A DNA stretch of 64,000 nt, from NCBI GenBank assembly GCA_963816145.1, contig CAWFJP010000004.1:416001-480000 (forward strand), read 5' to 3'. The notes below the pieces were generated by a model. The model had not been told where the DNA came from, did not search any database, and saw nothing but the letters and a program-made list of their open reading frames with translations. Source of the stretch: an uncultured delta proteobacterium. Its GTDB lineage: Bacteria; Desulfobacterota; Binatia; UBA9968. The translations under genes were made by a program, and so were the position numbers. Below, one piece after another: positions 2,499 through 16,744 of this stretch (within the stretch, counting starts at the first letter, position 1; every line of letters begins with the position of its first letter).

Positions 2499-3034
2499 AT
2501 GAATTTGTTGCGCATCGGCGATCACGCGCCGGATTTTAAAGTTAGAGGAATTTTGCACGCGCAGGTCGGCGAGTATTCTCTCGGCGCCGGCAAAGGCAAA
2601 TGGCTTGTGCTGTTTTTCTATCCGGCCGACTTTACCTTTATCTGTCCCGACGGAAGTCTACCGGTTTTAGCAAGGCGAGAAGGATTTTGCCGCCGAGGAT
2701 GCGCTGGTTTGGGGTGTTAGCGTCGATTCCGTCGACAGCCACCGCTCATGGTCCGCGGAGTTGGGCGGTTTGGACTGTCCGCTGCTGAGCGATGACAACG
2801 AAGAGTCTGAGCAGCGCCTACGGTGTGCTCGACGAGAAAGACGGCGTCGCGTTGCGCGCGACATTTATCGTCAATCCTGCTGGCGTCATCTGCTACCAAG
2901 TCGTCAGCCACGTCAACGTCGGCCGCAGCGTCGAAGAAACCTTGCGCGTGCTCAAAGCGCTGCGCACGGAGCGGTTGTGCCCCTCCGATTGGAAGCCGGG
3001 CGAGGCGACCGGCGATTTGGCGCTGAAATATTAG
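2499..3034 (+). pseudogene. ahpC: 2-Cys peroxiredoxin (AhpC), multiply frameshifted (pseudogene or sequencing errors)
   Basis: FFYPADFTFICP, then TEV / TGFSK / GVSVDSVDSH..W / PLLSD / YGVLDEKDGVALRATFIV..GRSVEETLRVLKAL..LCPSDWKPG pieces spread over all three frames. Confidence 0.75.
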
Positions 3035-10491: not shown

Positions 10492-11280
10492 CTAGCGCGC
10501 CGATGCGGCTGGGCGATCCAAGACGACGTTGGTGACCGCTGGTGAGCGTTCCAAGATTTTTAGTGCGTCTAGTCCAACTCGAAGGGCGATGCCGGGAATT
10601 TTTCGATAGATCCGGGTGACCCGGTAGCGGGTGCCGACCAGTTCAGCCAACACGTAGCTTTGCACGTCATGGATGGCGGCTCTTTGTAGAGCGAGCAAAT
10701 TCTCATCGAGCAACTCTTCGCGCTGCCATGGTGTTCGCAGGCCTGCCAGCACGAGCACCGTGCCGTCGGCTGCCACGCGCTTGAAGATCTGCGGCGGCAC
10801 CTTTTCCGCTATCGCGCTTGCGGTGAACGATACCGTTGAGCCGGCCTGGGCCGTATCGGTGCTCGCTTCATCAGGTTTTTTTATCGCCGGCCGATCGAGC
10901 AGTACGTTGGTAACAATCGGTAGGCGCGCCAACTCGGCCAACGCATCGGCGCCGACTTCCAACGCGATGCCGGGGATTTCTTGGTAGCGGCGCACAACCG
11001 TGAACGTGCGGCCTGCTAGGTGTTCCAATAGATCGTCTTGTCTTGCCGCAATGGCGCTGCGCTGGGCACGCAAGTCATCTGGGTTCAGGCTCGATTCCAT
11101 TTGCCAGGGCAAAGCCAAGCCCACCAGAACCCAGGCGCTGCCGTGAGCGGCGGTGTGGTCGATGACGTCACGGGGAATTTTATCGGAGGATTGGCCCTGG
11201 GCGGCTGCCAAGAAGAAAAAAAGTAGTGCCGCGCAGCAACCTAGTTTCAACATTCCTTTGTTCCGAAGATTTCGACTCAT
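10492..11280 (-). CDS. Secreted protein with two tandem ~85-aa domains resembling subtilase propeptide (I9 inhibitor)
   Basis: Signal peptide; internal duplication VLVGL..PWQ.E..L..QR.AI...Y..IPGIAL.VG.DAL..L.R.P.VTNV.LDRPA. Confidence 0.65.
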   Translation of the reverse strand: MSRNLRNKGMLKLGCCAALLFFFLAAAQGQSSDKIPRDVIDHTAAHGSAWVLVGLALPWQMESSLNPDDLRAQRSAIAARQDDLLEHLAGRTFTVVRRYQEIPGIALEVGADALAELARLPIVTNVLLDRPAIKKPDEASTDTAQAGSTVSFTASAIAEKVPPQIFKRVAADGTVLVLAGLRTPWQREELLDENLLALQRAAIHDVQSYVLAELVGTRYRVTRIYRKIPGIALRVGLDALKILERSPAVTNVVLDRPAASAR

Positions 11281-11483: not shown

Positions 11484-12638
11484 GTGCAGGCATTGCTTTG
11501 GTGGCGGAGGTTTTGTGTGCAGAGATTGATCGGCCTGGGTTTAACGCACAGTATAGCGCTGGCCTTCGGCATTTTCCTGTCTGCCGCAAATGCGCTATGC
11601 GCGGATGCGCCGCGGCCATCCCGGTGGGAGACCACGGTCGAAGCGGCCAAGAAGGAAGGCCAGGTCAACATCTATCTTTACCGCTACGGGCGGGTGCTCG
11701 ATGTCTTTCGCAGTGACTACCCGGAGATCCGGCCGTATTTGCTTACCGGCACCGGCGCGCAGATCACGACGAAGATTTTGACCGAGCGCAGAGCCGGGCG
11801 CTACCTTGCCGACGTGGTCGGCTTGGGTTCGTCGAATTACCGGATACTGCATCAGCAGGCAAAGATTCTCGACCCTATTCAGCCGGCGTTGATGCTTCCC
11901 GAAGTGCTCGATGGCGCGCGCTGGTACGGCGGCAAGCATCGCTATCTCGATGCCGAGAACAAGTATGTCTTTGCCTATCTCGCCAACGCCAGTTCGGGAC
12001 AGCTCTATTACAACACCGCGCAGGTCAATCCCAAAGAGTTCACCTCCTATTACGATCTGTTCAAGCCCAAGTGGAAGGGTAAGATCGTTATGCTCGATCC
12101 GCGGCCGCGCACCGAGATCGGCACCACCATGCAGTTTTTTTATTACAATCCGGAACTCGGGCCGGGATTTATTCGGCAGTTGTTCGGCGCCAAGGAGATT
12201 ACTTTTAGCCGCGACAGCCGGCAGATGATCGACTGGCTGGGACAAGGGAGATTCTCGATCTGCTTCGGTTGCTCCGGCGCGCTCAAGGCCAAGAATCAGG
12301 GACTGCCCATCGAGATCTTCGACACCAGCCTGTGGAAAGAGGGCGCCAGTTTTTCGGTCGGCGGCGGCACGCTATCGACACCGAGCCAGGGATCCCATCC
12401 CAACGCCGCCAAGGTTTTCACCAATTGGTATCTGTCGCGCCGCGGTCAAATAGCGCTGCAAAAACTTGGCGACCCCGACGAACCGCCCAACTCGGCGCGC
12501 ATCGATATTCCCAAGGACGAGATTCAAGTGCACAACAAACTGATCGACGGCCGTAAATATTTCGACGCCAGCCGACCGGAGTTCGAAGATATCGATGGCG
12601 CGTTCAAGACCGCGGTTCAGGCGATGGATGGACGCTGA
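11484..12638 (+). CDS. ABC-type extracellular solute-binding protein (AfuA/FbpA-like fold)
   Basis: AAKKEGQVNIY, PKWKGKI, HPNAAKVFTNWYLS motifs; exact start uncertain. Confidence 0.85.
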   Translation: MQALLWWRRFCVQRLIGLGLTHSIALAFGIFLSAANALCADAPRPSRWETTVEAAKKEGQVNIYLYRYGRVLDVFRSDYPEIRPYLLTGTGAQITTKILTERRAGRYLADVVGLGSSNYRILHQQAKILDPIQPALMLPEVLDGARWYGGKHRYLDAENKYVFAYLANASSGQLYYNTAQVNPKEFTSYYDLFKPKWKGKIVMLDPRPRTEIGTTMQFFYYNPELGPGFIRQLFGAKEITFSRDSRQMIDWLGQGRFSICFGCSGALKAKNQGLPIEIFDTSLWKEGASFSVGGGTLSTPSQGSHPNAAKVFTNWYLSRRGQIALQKLGDPDEPPNSARIDIPKDEIQVHNKLIDGRKYFDASRPEFEDIDGAFKTAVQAMDGR

Positions 12639-12697
12639 CAGTTTTCGACCGCGGCAAGCTGTTTGAATTGAAATTAACCAGGGAGAACGATTAACCC

Positions 12698-13985
12698 ATG
12701 GAACTGTCACTGCTCGATTACTCGATCGACCAACTGGAGTGGGGCGCGCGCAGCGCGCTGACCGGTCGATCGCTGACCGTCTCGCAGGCCGACATTCGTG
12801 CACTTGCTCGGTGATTTAAGCCACGGCATTCGCGTCGACTTGGAGCTCGCCCGTCCCGGCGAGTCGAAGCGCATCGTCCATGTGCTCGATACGGTACTGC
12901 CGATTGCTAAGCTTGCCGGTGCCGGCACGGCCTTTCCAGGCTTCCATGAATCGGCAAAACTCGTCGGCACTGGGAAAACCGCGCGCCTCAATAATCTTCT
13001 GGTCACCGTGGCCGGGCGCTTCCCGCAGTTCGAATCGTTGTCGCCGATCGAAAAGCCGCGCGAGGGGATCATCGATATGGCCGGTGTCGGCGCACCCTAC
13101 GCTTACGGTTCGGATCGATTTCATGTCGTGCTGTCGCTCACACCCGACCCGTCGGTCTCCAACGCCGGCTTTGATCAGGCGCTGAGAAACATGGCGCTGC
13201 GCTGCGCGAGCTTTCTGGCGCGGGTGGACAAAAACAACTGCGAGCCGGCGGAGCAGCGGATTGCTTTGCCGCCGGTCGATCAACGTTTGCCCAAAGTGGT
13301 GCTGATCTACCAGGTGCAGAGCCAGCTGTGCTGCGCGCGCACATTTTATTACGGCGAAGAAATTTCCAAAACCTTGCCCACCTTCGTTCATCCCAGCGAA
13401 TTTTTCGACGGCGCGGTGGTCAGCGGCAATTATAAAAGCGAGCGCAAGGTGCCGACATCTTTGCACTGCGATAATCCGTTCATCGCCGACTTGCTCGCGC
13501 GCCACGGCAAAACCCTGAACTTCCTGGGCGTGATTCTGTCGCGCGGTTACAACGATAGTTTTGAGCAGAAAAAAAAGCTCGGGCTTTGGGTGGCGCGCCT
13601 GGCGCGAAATCTTGGAGCCGACGGAGCGGTCGCCTTCATGGAGGGCACCGGCAACGGCACGGTGGACTTCATGCAAACCGTCAAGGCTTGCGAGGACGAG
13701 GGTGTTAAAACCGCCGCCGTCTTGCATGAATCGAACGGTCCCAAGGGTTACGAGCGGCCTTTGGTCGACCATCCCAAGGAGGCCGATGGGATGATCAGCC
13801 GCGGCAATGTTTCGGAAAAAATCTATATCCCGCCGCTCGACTCGGTAATCGGCGCCACGACGCTCGATCTCCACTTGAAGGCGAGCCACGATGCGCGCTT
13901 GCCGTTTCTTTTCGACCCAACGATCTTTTTCGCTTCCTACAGCAAGATGGGTAGCAGCGGCTTTCGCGCGGAATATGAGAACTGA
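12698..13985 (+). CDS. grdE: Glycine/sarcosine/betaine reductase component B proprotein subunit (GrdE/GrdG/GrdI family); one +1 frameshift near 12803
   Basis: ATG 12698 after GGGAGA gives MELSLLDYSIDQLEWGARS..., joining the 12798 frame VDLELARPGESKRI, EGIIDMAG.GA.Y, DGAVVSGN, NFLGVI, GADGA, EG.GN. Confidence 0.8.
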
Positions 13986-14067
13986 CGTACCGCAATCGAA
14001 GATGAACAGAGATTAACCGTAAAGCGCCTAGCGCGGCAGATCCGTAACCCAATAAGAAGTAAGATGT

Positions 14068-14148
14068 TCACCACGAAGGACACGAAGATCACGAAGTTCG
14101 GAGTTCAAACTATCCGAAACCTTCGTGGCCTTCGTGCCTTCGTGGTGA
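14068..14148. repeat. CACCACGAAG...CTTCGTGGTG palindromic intergenic element; copies at 16835-16940, 18102-18381 and 32033-32103
   Basis: Arms of 9-mer CACGAAGNN units with terminal TCACCACGAAG / CTTCGTGGTGA. Confidence 0.75.
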
Positions 14149-14352
14149 GATCGCATTTTGCGTTTAGCAGAGCAATTTAGGAGCCTTGGCGCGGGAAAAT
14201 TGCGCCAGCCGCGAAAATTTCAAAATATAATAATACAATTTCACATCGAAATAAGATTCTGATTCGGAAGGTTGGCCGCAAAGAACGGAAAAAGGAATTG
14301 AAATTGTTGGGGGCAACCCGCCGTGGTTGCCGATCCATTACGGAGGCGCGCG

Positions 14353-15651
14353 ATGATCAAAGTGCTGCACTATTTGAACCAGTTTTTCGCCGGCATCGGC
14401 GGCGAAGAGAAGGCCGGGCAGGAAGCGCTCTTGCTGCCCCATGCGGTGGGCGTCGGTAGCGTGATCGAAACTGCATTGAAAGCGCACGGCGTGGAATACG
14501 CAACGATCGTTTGCGGCGACAACTATTTTCACGAGGCGGAACCCGAAGCGTTGCGCACGATCGGCTCGGCGATCGATGAGTTTCACCCGGATCTCTTCCT
14601 GGCCGGTCCTGCGTTCAACGCCGGCCGCTATGGCCTCGCCTGCGCCAAGCTGTGCAGTTGGGTGCGCGACAATTGGCGCATTCCGGCGATTACCGGCATG
14701 GACGAAAATAATCCGGGAACCCAGGAGATCGGCCGCCATGTTTTCGTTGTGCAAACCGGCGCTTCGACGGCGTCGATGGCGGAGACTTTGAAGCGGTATT
14801 CCCAGCTGATCGAAAAATTGCTGGCGCAAGATGCCGCCGCGGTGGAAAATTTCCGCGCCGAGCACTGTCTGCCGATCCCGCGCCGGTTCACGGTAAAAAC
14901 CGGCAAGCCGGATTATGTCCGCGCCACGGATCTGTTGCTGTCCAAGCTCAACGGCCAAGCCTATACAAGTGAAATTCCGCGCATCGAAACCGAAGCGCAC
15001 ACGATTCCAAATTTGGCCGGTATTTTGAGCGAGGCCACCGTGGCGCTGGTTACCGAAGGCGGCTTGGTGCCAACGGGAAATCCGGATCGTTTGGAAAGTT
15101 CGCGCGGCTCGAAATATTTCAAGTATTCGCTCGCCGGGCGCGACGATCTCAAGCGCGGCGAGTTCGCGGCGATGCATACCGGTTACGACACCTCCACGGT
15201 CGATCAAGATCCCGATCGCATCGTTCCGGTCGACGCCATGCGCGCGCTGGAGAAGGCGCAAAGGATCAAAAAACTCTACGATCATTATTTCGTCACCACC
15301 GGCACCGGCGCCATGCCGAGCAAGATGGCTGAGCTCGGCGCCGGCATCGCCGACGAGCTGGTGACCGCCGGCGTCAACGCGGTCATTTTGACCGCCACGT
15401 GAGGAACCGGCACTCGTAGCGGCGCTACGATCAGCAAAGAAATTGAGAAGAAAGGAATCCCCGTCGTCCTGATCACCTGTCTTGCCAACGTCGCGCAGCA
15501 AGTCGGCGTCGGCAGGATTCTCGCCGGCAGCAAATTTCATTACCCGGTCGGACAACCCGAACTGCCGCCGCAGGAAGAACTGCGCTGGCGCGTCGCGCTC
15601 CTCGAGAAAGCGCTCGCTTCCCTGGAAACTAGGCAGGAGGCGAAGAATTGA
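14353..15651 (+). CDS. grdB: Selenoprotein B of the glycine/sarcosine/betaine reductase family (432 aa, Sec at codon 350)
   Basis: HYLNQFFAGIGGEEKA, CGDNYF, AGPAFNAGRYG, DPDRIVPVD; in-frame TGA at 15400-15402 in AVILTAT-U-GT; GrdB-like sequence continues (GATISKEIEKKGIPVV...RILAG...HYPVGQP) to TGA 15649-15651. Confidence 0.9.
15414..15430 (+). promoter_or_regulatory. Bacterial SECIS element of grdB-like gene
   Basis: TCGTAGC-GGC-GCTACGA perfect hairpin starting 11 nt after the UGA, G-led apical loop. Confidence 0.75.
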
Positions 15652-15774
15652 AAAAATGGAGAATGGAAAATTGATAATGGAGAATGACGGGGAGGCGAGG
15701 GGGAATTGAGAATGGATAATGGAGAATTGATAATTGAAAATGCGGGGGAAGGGGGATGGGTTATTCGACTCTTT

Positions 15775-15845
15775 CCGTCATACCGTTGAAGAACGGTATC
15801 CAGGTGCATGATGGGCCTGGATTCCCGCGTGCGCGGGAATGACGG
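15775..15845. repeat. Composite REP-like element (CGTCAT..hairpin..ATCCAG / CTGGAT..hairpin..ATGACG); near-identical inverted copy at 45406-45476
   Basis: CCGTCATACCGTTGAAGAACGGTATCCAG + CTGGATTCCCGCGTGCGCGGGAATGACGG; both copies 71 bp. Confidence 0.8.
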
Positions 15846-15880
15846 AATGATCAGTTCACTTCTCGTTGGAGCAATTTTCG

Positions 15881-16744
15881 CTAACTTCTTCCCGTGAGCT
15901 TCCGTCCTTGGTCCAAGACTCCGAACGTGCGCGGCGATGAGGGCATGAGGAAACGGTAGCCGTCTTTCACCAACCGCTCGATGTTTTTGCCGTCCGGATG
16001 CGGATGGCCGCAGGGGACGTTGTGTTCTTTGCAGATTTTCAAAATGCTGTTGATTGCGTCGGCGACCACCGGGTGGTCGTAGTCGCGCGGATGGCCGAGC
16101 TCCTGGCTCAGATCGCCTTCGCCGATCAGGACCACGCCGATACCGGGCACTTCTTTTAAAATCTTCGGCAGGTTTTCGATGGCGCGCATCTCTTCGCATT
16201 GGATGACCACCAGGACTTCGCCATCCGGCGCCAGCGGCCAGACATCGGCGCGCTTGTAATATTCCTGTTGCGGCAGCCCCCAGTAGCGCGCGGCGCGGGC
16301 CGGCGCGTCGCCGCGGATGCCGGGCGGATGGTAGCGCGGCGCGCTCTTGAGGCGCGGATAGCGGCAGGCGCCGACGGCGTTGGCCGCCTCTTCGACCGAG
16401 CTGACATGGGGGAAGATGATGCCCATGACGCCGATATCGAGCACCTGCTTGGCGATCCAGCTGTTCATTTCGATGCCGTTGGGCGGTACGCGCACCATCG
16501 GCGTGACCGCGGGCGCGAGGGTGCCGCCGGCGACGATCTGGCCGCGGTCGAGCATGAATTGCAGGGCATTGCGCAGGCCGGGAAAATCCAGCGGCGCATG
16601 TTCCATTTCAAAAGCGACGCCGTCCAGCTTGGTGCCGGCCATGGCGACGGCATTCTCGATGTCGACGGGAGTGAAGGCGACGAAGGCGGTCTGGCCTTGT
16701 TCGAGGGCTTTGATAACGCCGTTGAGGCGAGGTATGTCTGGCAT
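15881..16744 (-). CDS. HpcH/HpaI aldolase/citrate lyase family protein
   Basis: FEMEHAP, PMVRVP, KQVLDIGVMGIIFPHV, GIRG, IGEGDLSQELG; start at MPDIPRL after AGGAG. Confidence 0.88.
   Translation of the reverse strand: MPDIPRLNGVIKALEQGQTAFVAFTPVDIENAVAMAGTKLDGVAFEMEHAPLDFPGLRNALQFMLDRGQIVAGGTLAPAVTPMVRVPPNGIEMNSWIAKQVLDIGVMGIIFPHVSSVEEAANAVGACRYPRLKSAPRYHPPGIRGDAPARAARYWGLPQQEYYKRADVWPLAPDGEVLVVIQCEEMRAIENLPKILKEVPGIGVVLIGEGDLSQELGHPRDYDHPVVADAINSILKICKEHNVPCGHPHPDGKNIERLVKDGYRFLMPSSPRTFGVLDQGRKLTGRS

Follow-up and report, generated by a model that had tools for sequence, protein, structure and literature searches.

A gene pair related to protein B of glycine reductase

The DNA analysed here, a 64,000-nt window equivalent to positions 416001-480000 of contig C4 in its source genome (G000; Gnnn and Cn are our working labels for genomes and contigs), carries at 11484-15651 three genes in the same direction on the + strand, which encode a solute-binding protein, a GrdE-family protein and a selenocysteine (Sec)-containing GrdB-family protein, the last two being relatives of the subunits of protein B of the Grd reductases. 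This co-oriented trio had been picked out in an initial annotation and is borne out by Pfam matches, by an in-frame TGA and by a hairpin. The features of the locus are:

11484..12638 (likely start 11517), + strand: solute-binding protein of the SBP_bac_1 / iron-type ATP-binding cassette (ABC) family, in a Binatota SBP_bac_1-like family; no permease adjoining
12698..13985, + strand: grdE/grdI-family protein-B subunit that is not a pyruvoyl proprotein (PF09338, E 3e-90; 428 aa in orthologs)
13431..13436, + strand: Tyr-Lys codons within the SGNYKSERK motif, the Tyr in the column of the GrdE pyruvoyl Cys242 (Phe in GrdI)
13986..14352, no strand: intergenic stretch with a high-copy repeat and a 12-nt inverted pair; depth peak at 13953-14139
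14353..15651, + strand: grdB-family selenoprotein of 432 aa with Sec350 and the motif UGTGTRSG (PF07355, E 2e-106; TIGR01918 above cut-off)
15400..15402, + strand: TGA in frame, decoded as Sec; both it and the motif recur in 20/20 orthologs
15414..15430, + strand: hairpin resembling a selenocysteine insertion sequence (SECIS), stem CGTAGC / GCTACG, loop GGC (computed fold; identical in 21/21 rows)

Twenty-six non-self ortholog loci were found, and the 20 on longer contigs were examined. In all 20 the PF07355 and PF09338 genes stand side by side, several of them with a grdE-grdB spacer of only ~12 bases, as opposed to the 13986-14352 stretch of the window. The TGA at 15400 is the only one in frame within grdB, and homology runs on for 82 residues past it. 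The hairpin is invariant, third codon positions included, in the 20 orthologs and the window, and the adjacent codons vary; its stem includes the codon for the Ser found where UxxCxxC has its second Cys. All six grdB genes of G000 carry the TGA and the hairpin, and in the five paralogs both arms of the stem are changed. The Sec machinery presupposed by the initial annotation is present, selA, selB and selD scoring above their cut-offs on contig C30 and tRNA-Sec lying on the same contig. With a TUG motif, a SECIS-like element and this machinery, window GrdB has what marks the selenoproteins of its family, and Sec incorporation is predicted. The three sel genes are adjacent, and selD (G000:C30:565877-566803) has an in-frame TGA of its own and is probably itself a selenoprotein.

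The grdE gene, correctly recognised at first, starts at the ATG at 12698 and not at 12798; the open reading frame (ORF) listed there is the 3' frame only, the assembled gene being frameshifted near 12799-12803 by one extra base. Contigs from 3/3 DNA runs lack one base at 12799-12801; these contigs also show a dense patch of further differences at 12629-12833 and match near-exactly elsewhere. The gene is intact (~428 aa) in 20/20 ortholog loci, and an assembly error is the most likely source of the shift. Four of the 16 grd genes of G000 are broken (grdE, grdC and two paralogs), which could be read as real frameshifts in a system that is decaying in this strain. Although a protein-level control, with 0/39 other genes broken, spoke for such decay, it was blind to the known grdE shift as well and is superseded by a DNA-level control in which 25/202 ordinary G000 genes were frameshifted against a relative. 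Because 4/16 is within chance of this ordinary rate (P = 0.13), the broken grd genes are unremarkable, and decay, set against the DNA-run contigs and the intact orthologs, is highly improbable.

Both subunits deviate at catalytic positions, as had been noted initially. The E subunit has Tyr in the column of GrdE Cys242, the pyruvoyl site of C. difficile GrdE according to the accessible part of PMC9908766, and lacks Cys246 too; its loop reads NYK in 106/120 and NFK in 13/120 homologs, one further sequence not being parsed. The B subunit reads UGTGTRS in 21/21 rows, both cysteines of UxxCxxC being gone. In quick IQ-TREE trees (with two betaine-type references, and with four near-duplicate E rows dropped before the E tree), each subunit forms a long-branch clade of its own, with a Shimodaira-Hasegawa-like approximate likelihood-ratio test (SH-aLRT) support of 100; that of E lies outside the clade of GrdE, GrdG and GrdI (99), that of B outside the GrdB/F and GrdH groups, and neither nests with characterised glycine, sarcosine or betaine enzymes. 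Equivalog cut-offs were missed for TIGR01917 (329.7 vs 602.2), NF040794 (370.2 vs 800), NF040793 (201.6 vs 780, scored on the 395-aa 3' frame only) and the betaine reductase model NF040795 (362.6 vs 775). The window pair thus lacks the pyruvoyl Cys242, the UxxCxxC and the equivalog-level scores of glycine and sarcosine reductases, and it has neither a place in the GrdH/GrdI clade nor the NF040795 score of a betaine reductase. No sequence match to window GrdB was found in PDB, and a fold search with its model (predicted template modelling score, pTM, 0.58) returned generic alpha/beta matches only.

Akin to the glycine and sarcosine reductases (GrdB/E and GrdF/G, for which Acetoanaerobium noterae and Peptoclostridium acidaminophilum records served as references), the source genome has protein A, B and C of the same families, CxxU in GrdA and a thioredoxin system; the window pair differs in lacking Cys242, Cys246 and CxxC and in HGG and TxG motifs that depart from the published GrdB/GrdF patterns, and G000 differs in having no GrdD and a short, GDRY-type GrdC. 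With betaine reductase GrdH/GrdI (reference operon, Enterococcus gilvus) the pair shares an unprocessed E-type subunit, an aromatic residue in the Cys242 column and Sec in B, but identity is ~39% (B) and ~33% (E), the clades are separate, window B has lost UxxCxxC, the GrdI loop SFMPCSSKW has become NYKSERK[VI] in the window family, and BCCT transporter and grdD are both missing.

Another precedent is FarEB, the fluoroacetate reductase of Cloacibacillus porcorum MFA1, encoded in a farACEB operon (PMC10838667). As far as the accessible part of that source describes them, FarB is without CxxC and FarE without the processing cysteines, and both are encoded apart from the grdA/C that they feed; a satellite protein B lacking CxxC or processing Cys is, given this precedent, not new. 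The likeness extends, within the same part of the account, to a transporter with a GrdE-like and a Sec-GrdB-like gene apart from grdA/C, to a substrate that forms no Schiff base, and to a pair that is one among many protein-B paralogs feeding a common A/C. The window E subunit is nonetheless no ortholog of FarE (93.6 on the FarE model against a cut-off of 675; the trees contained no Far sequences), the window locus has no radical-SAM gene, major facilitator superfamily (MFS) antiporter, farA or farC as neighbour, and the host has an aerobe-type genome with a protein C lacking GrdD.

With an aromatic residue in place of the Cys that forms the pyruvoyl group, a substrate that forms a Schiff base, such as glycine, is unlikely, and this part of the initial proposal gains support. 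The onium compound proposed along with it (a quaternary amine or sulfonium, for instance) is possible and not favoured: where GrdI continues after its Phe with Trp and Tyr, the window family has Lys and Arg, and an anionic substrate would be no worse a fit to such a loop than an onium compound. The basic NYKSERK loop weakly suggests an anionic non-amine substrate in preference to betaine, for example a halo-, thioether-, aryloxy- or N-carboxymethyl acetate.

A remote core with GrdC and without GrdD

A tblastn search with reference GrdA, GrdC, GrdD, TrxA and TrxB returned nothing in the 64-kb window, in agreement with the initial annotation, but the absence does not extend to the genome for grdA, grdC and trx. 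G000 has a grdA (E 3e-51, one TGA, CFVU) directly after grdC at G000:C2:210846-212859, trxA and trxB homologs outside the window, and six grdB and eight grdE loci in total. Across 100 genomes of the order, each at least 85% complete, grdC and grdA occur in the same 78. The count for grdB above cut-off is 83, most of these genomes holding several copies; matches per genome range from 1 to about 10, and a single genome reaches 18. The window paralog is present in 26 of the 100, and 25 of these have both grdA and grdC, the exception being a 670-contig assembly. The initial notion of a stand-alone enzyme does not survive these counts, and the window pair is, judged by sequence, best described as a satellite protein B, one of six putative substrate-binding modules served by the remote core.

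In G047, G151 and G121, grdC-grdA-grdE-grdB form a single operon without grdD, and in G047 and G121 a gene resembling a DUF255 gene of G000 lies divergently upstream. Since the C31 module of G000 retains this DUF255-type neighbour of the relatives' intact operon without the core genes, the comparison suggests that the operon was split. Extra grdE-like genes that have no grdB of their own, namely two E genes after one B at G000:C29:95029-100208 and an orphan E at C1:405505-406683, hint that a single B subunit may partner more than one E. A grdE/grdB pair at G185:C2:2827280-2828320 has no grdA/grdC match in its genome; it may be a relic or genuinely stand alone, or a gap in the assembly may account for the missing genes.

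Grd reductases are described, in the accessible parts of the sources, as anaerobic, acetyl-phosphate-forming Stickland enzymes (PMC10298544; bioRxiv 2022.07.06.499078), and the canonical anaerobic enzyme is presented likewise in PMC13188914 and PMC10826368. In the canonical acetyl-phosphate-forming complex protein C consists of GrdC and GrdD, a composition found in none of the order's genomes: grdD scored above cut-off in 0/100, whereas the same search recovered it from 3/3 reference records and 7/401 genomes of the phylum. The absence of grdD from the window noted at the outset holds for all 100 genomes searched. The weak matches examined were ordinary PlsX (17/17), and nothing in the six-frame translation of G000 matched a profile built for the cysteine domain of GrdD, whose Cys is reportedly the acetyl-carrying thiol. 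The non-classical route proposed initially is supported in part, grdD being missing and the GrdA/GrdC relay genes being present in the genome.

In the evenly sampled phylum set of 401 genomes, 23 have grdC, with an adjacent grdD in 7 and none found in 16, so that the GrdD-less form outnumbers the textbook form 16 to 7. The motif GDRY is present in 16/16 GrdD-less GrdCs and in 0/10 GrdD-linked ones (7 genomes and 3 references). The GrdD-linked GrdCs form one clade in a quick tree (SH-aLRT 99) and all have an extra C-terminal helix, which all 16 GrdD-less ones lack, G388 having an unrelated longer tail. The GrdD-less GrdC is a separate type, characterised by a thiolase fold, a Cys at the FabH position, GDRY and the lack of the C-terminal helix. 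A His (ELHNP) that had been considered as a further marker was rejected. GrdC-GrdD fusions also occur (P0126, P0129, P0132 and P0135; 842-861 aa) and keep the GrdD cysteine motif.

Among 80 metagenome grdC loci chosen by likeness to Binatia GrdC (a contig scan with a single GrdC query had given 2 loci only), grdD was found in 0/80, at least 1.5 kb of downstream sequence being available in 52; grdA was present in 65, B or E genes in 33 and trxA in 20, and no other enzyme recurred across lineages. Six loci (L187, L188, L191, L192, L193 and L205) are GrdD-less operons with a glycine-like GrdB bearing the full UxxCxxC; provided that they reduce glycine, no other system would lend itself more readily to a test of what GrdC makes by itself. 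L130 (CAWGAO010000007.1), from a small genome with the candidate-phylum label Ca. Tagabacteria, has grdB (UxxCxxC), trxA, a GDRY-type grdC and grdA with no grdD match, and may be mis-binned. A literature search, to which most subscription journals were outside the coverage, returned no paper on a GrdD-less Grd system or on Grd in Binatia, and betaine, sarcosine, glycine and the stem selen- do not occur in the main text of the Binatota genome paper. The GrdD-less protein C is the unusual part; satellite protein-B modules were already known.

Proposed relay and competing explanations

On balance we somewhat favour the reading that dispersed protein-B modules, in G000 six of them, each substrate-specific, feed one remote core of Sec-GrdA and GrdD-less GrdC. 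The GrdB selenolate would, very probably if the window pair works like its family, displace X from X-CH2-COO- without a Schiff base to give a carboxymethyl-selenoether, and the carboxymethyl group would with the same high probability pass to thioredoxin-reduced GrdA (CxxU). For the last step, which we put slightly below an even chance, the thiolase-fold GrdC would cleave the selenoether, take up the acetyl group on its FabH-position Cys and hand it to coenzyme A (CoA). The purpose would be the scavenging of substituted acetates as C2 units by an oxygen-respiring heterotroph. The setting is oxygenase-rich, as first remarked, with four Rieske oxygenase subunits and one LigB dioxygenase in the window, and another grd locus of G000 has a gene for cytochrome c oxidase subunit I in its vicinity. 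G000 is a Binatia genome; Candidatus Binatia is the label of close E-subunit homologs, the nearest clusters of the binding protein are Binatota, and near-identical DNA is present in soil and wetland metagenomes.

A wider proposal, which we advance tentatively and as a whole, is that of a second widespread Grd class in oxygen-respiring Binatia of soil, wetland and other habitats, in which GrdC alone would convert carboxymethyl-GrdA to acetyl-CoA and interchangeable selenoprotein-B modules would remove the acetate arm of X-CH2-COO- compounds of many kinds, among which haloacetates, thioether or aryloxy acetates, or N-carboxymethyl compounds may be included; the NYKSERK / UGTGTRSG module would represent one new specificity class within it. 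The window locus is an ordinary member of the GrdD-less variant, one satellite among many. Most genomes of this abundant, aerobic-type order carry such a GrdD-less Grd, often without detected acetyl phosphate use, and annotation pipelines name these genes 'glycine reductase', so that the metabolism of soil metagenomes would be misassigned. A protein C that naturally consists of GrdC alone also opens a long-standing mechanistic question to experiment, namely which of the subunits is responsible for cleaving the carboxymethyl-selenoether and for forming the first acetyl thioester.

Acetyl-CoA as the product, in place of acetyl phosphate, falls just short of an even bet, and several lines of sequence and modelling evidence bear on it. 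The GrdC model (predicted local distance difference test, pLDDT, 93.6) has a thiolase-superfamily fold over its whole length and aligns with KAS III over 276 residues (Z 23.4, root-mean-square deviation 3.8); the Cys that falls on FabH Cys112 is present in 120/120 close homologs. Fold (Z about 23) and a Cys at the catalytic position are shared with the superfamily of KAS III (FabH), OleA, HMG-CoA synthase and thiolase, as opposed to an identity of ~10-19%, a FabH-triad His and Asn that are unmapped, and a use of CoA that is predicted only. A regular-expression search for thiolases toward a second profile gave one usable protein. Pta was found in 0/100 genomes of the order and PduL in 0/11 genomes searched; AckA was not found in 32/78 genomes with grdA/C compared to 5/22 without them, kin in these counts not being independent. 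In 7/10 single-contig grdA/C genomes no AckA, Pta or PduL was detected. With no GrdD, no Pta and AckA often undetected, there is thus no detected source of acetyl phosphate and in many genomes no detected consumer. Acetyl-CoA would be assimilated, if G000 belongs to order UBA9968 as seems probable, through the glyoxylate shunt reported for that order in the accessible part of PMC8262859, and glycine reduction with H2 is put at about -70 kJ/mol in that of PMC9751293. A complex prediction for GrdC with PlsX scored 0.00 and counts neither way. A free energy of about -70 kJ/mol leaves room for NADPH as donor together with a thioester product.

A number of observations weigh against this picture. 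GrdD-linked GrdC keeps the same Cys, and a residue common to both types is by itself no proof of CoA transfer; hhalign placed FabH His244 and Asn274 on no GrdC residues, the register being ambiguous there. The ELHNP His is present in a GrdD-linked GrdC and replaced by Gln in 9/16 GrdD-less ones. Nine of the ten single-contig genomes belong to one genus and are not independent, AckA is present in G000 and in 46/78 grdA/C genomes, and the 80 metagenome loci are, by the way they were chosen, a biased sample. Some GrdD-less operons outside Binatia carry a glycine-type GrdB with UxxCxxC, which implies that loss of GrdD and unusual substrates are separate matters. Five genomes have grdB with no grdA/C match, among them G185 (7 contigs, 98% complete), whose pair is a different paralog and which is the one case that gaps hardly explain. 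Lastly, G000 grdC has three single-base indels, probably assembly errors.

Three other accounts have to be set beside acetyl-CoA formation by the relay. The same B-to-A-to-C relay could end in free acetate, GrdC hydrolysing the acetyl thioester or protonating an enolate, with the aim of removing or freeing the leaving group or of dumping electrons, and with acetyl-CoA synthetase reactivating the acetate. That GrdD and Pta, and in many genomes AckA, are absent fits this equally well, no CoA-binding residues were identified in GrdC, and the C27 module of G000 has an acyl-CoA synthetase in its vicinity. It remains a rather unlikely outcome, as GrdC retains the thiolase fold in full along with the Cys that carries the acyl group, the closest folds (KAS III, OleA and HMG-CoA synthase) use acyl-CoA thioesters, and release would waste the thioester that the canonical enzyme conserves. 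Alternatively acetyl phosphate might still be formed, with housekeeping PlsX or an unrecognised protein in place of GrdD. GrdD and PlsX are indeed homologous, and the AckA found in G000 and in many grdA/C genomes would have a role, but the PlsX genes in question sit in a fatty-acid operon and lack the GrdD cysteine domain, the short GrdC is without the tail found in every GrdD-linked GrdC, no enzyme recurs beside grdC across lineages in the 80 loci, and the seven single-contig genomes offer no detected acetyl phosphate user, all of which makes such a replacement distinctly improbable.

The remaining account is that of the initial annotation, in which a selenolate enzyme working by itself, with neither GrdA nor GrdC, dealkylates an onium compound taken up by the cell. 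The window without either gene, the long branches of both subunits and the 5/83 grdB genomes lacking grdA/C, the near-complete G185 included, are what one would expect of it; set against this are the co-occurrence of the window paralog with grdA and grdC in all but the fragmented assembly, a binding protein that is not conserved beside the pair, and the loss of CxxC, which would leave no internal thiol to release the Se-alkyl adduct. We consider a stand-alone enzyme very unlikely.

Binding protein, neighbouring genes and other features

The pair is flanked in the window by the binding-protein gene and an aldolase gene. The initial annotation had counted the binding protein as part of the module, yet a close homolog (82%) stands beside the grdE/B pair in just 1/20 ortholog loci, and the gene directly upstream of the pair encodes a co-oriented binding protein of whatever kind in 2/20, against a genome baseline of 368/6271 genes (5.9%). 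The binding protein is a variable neighbour outside the module core. With ~120 family paralogs in G000, no adjoining permease and no conservation beside the pair, it was ruled out as a pointer to the substrate. A general tie between protein-B units and import is plausible, 5/8 such units in G000 having a binding protein directly upstream; solute-binding-protein-like genes make up ~763/7034 called genes, roughly 11% of the genome. Further neighbours (EutA-like, MFS, M24 peptidase and cupin) recur among close kin only.

One metatranscriptome run gave short contigs over parts of the three genes, which is no demonstration of transcription. High-copy extragenic repeats at 13953-14139 and 15636-16000 of the window reach a mapping depth ~100x that of their flanks in three metagenomes and contain an inverted pair and AT-rich direct repeats. 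At 10492-11280 (- strand) lies a gene for a secreted-looking protein with two internal repeats, without Pfam or NCBIfam match, homologs of which occur near the grdE/B pair in 3/20 ortholog loci. A gene at 2499-3034 is split into ORFs of 73 and 80 aa where two relatives have a single ORF of 177 aa, probably by another assembly frameshift; the 177-aa counterpart we take, from its motif, to be peroxiredoxin-like.

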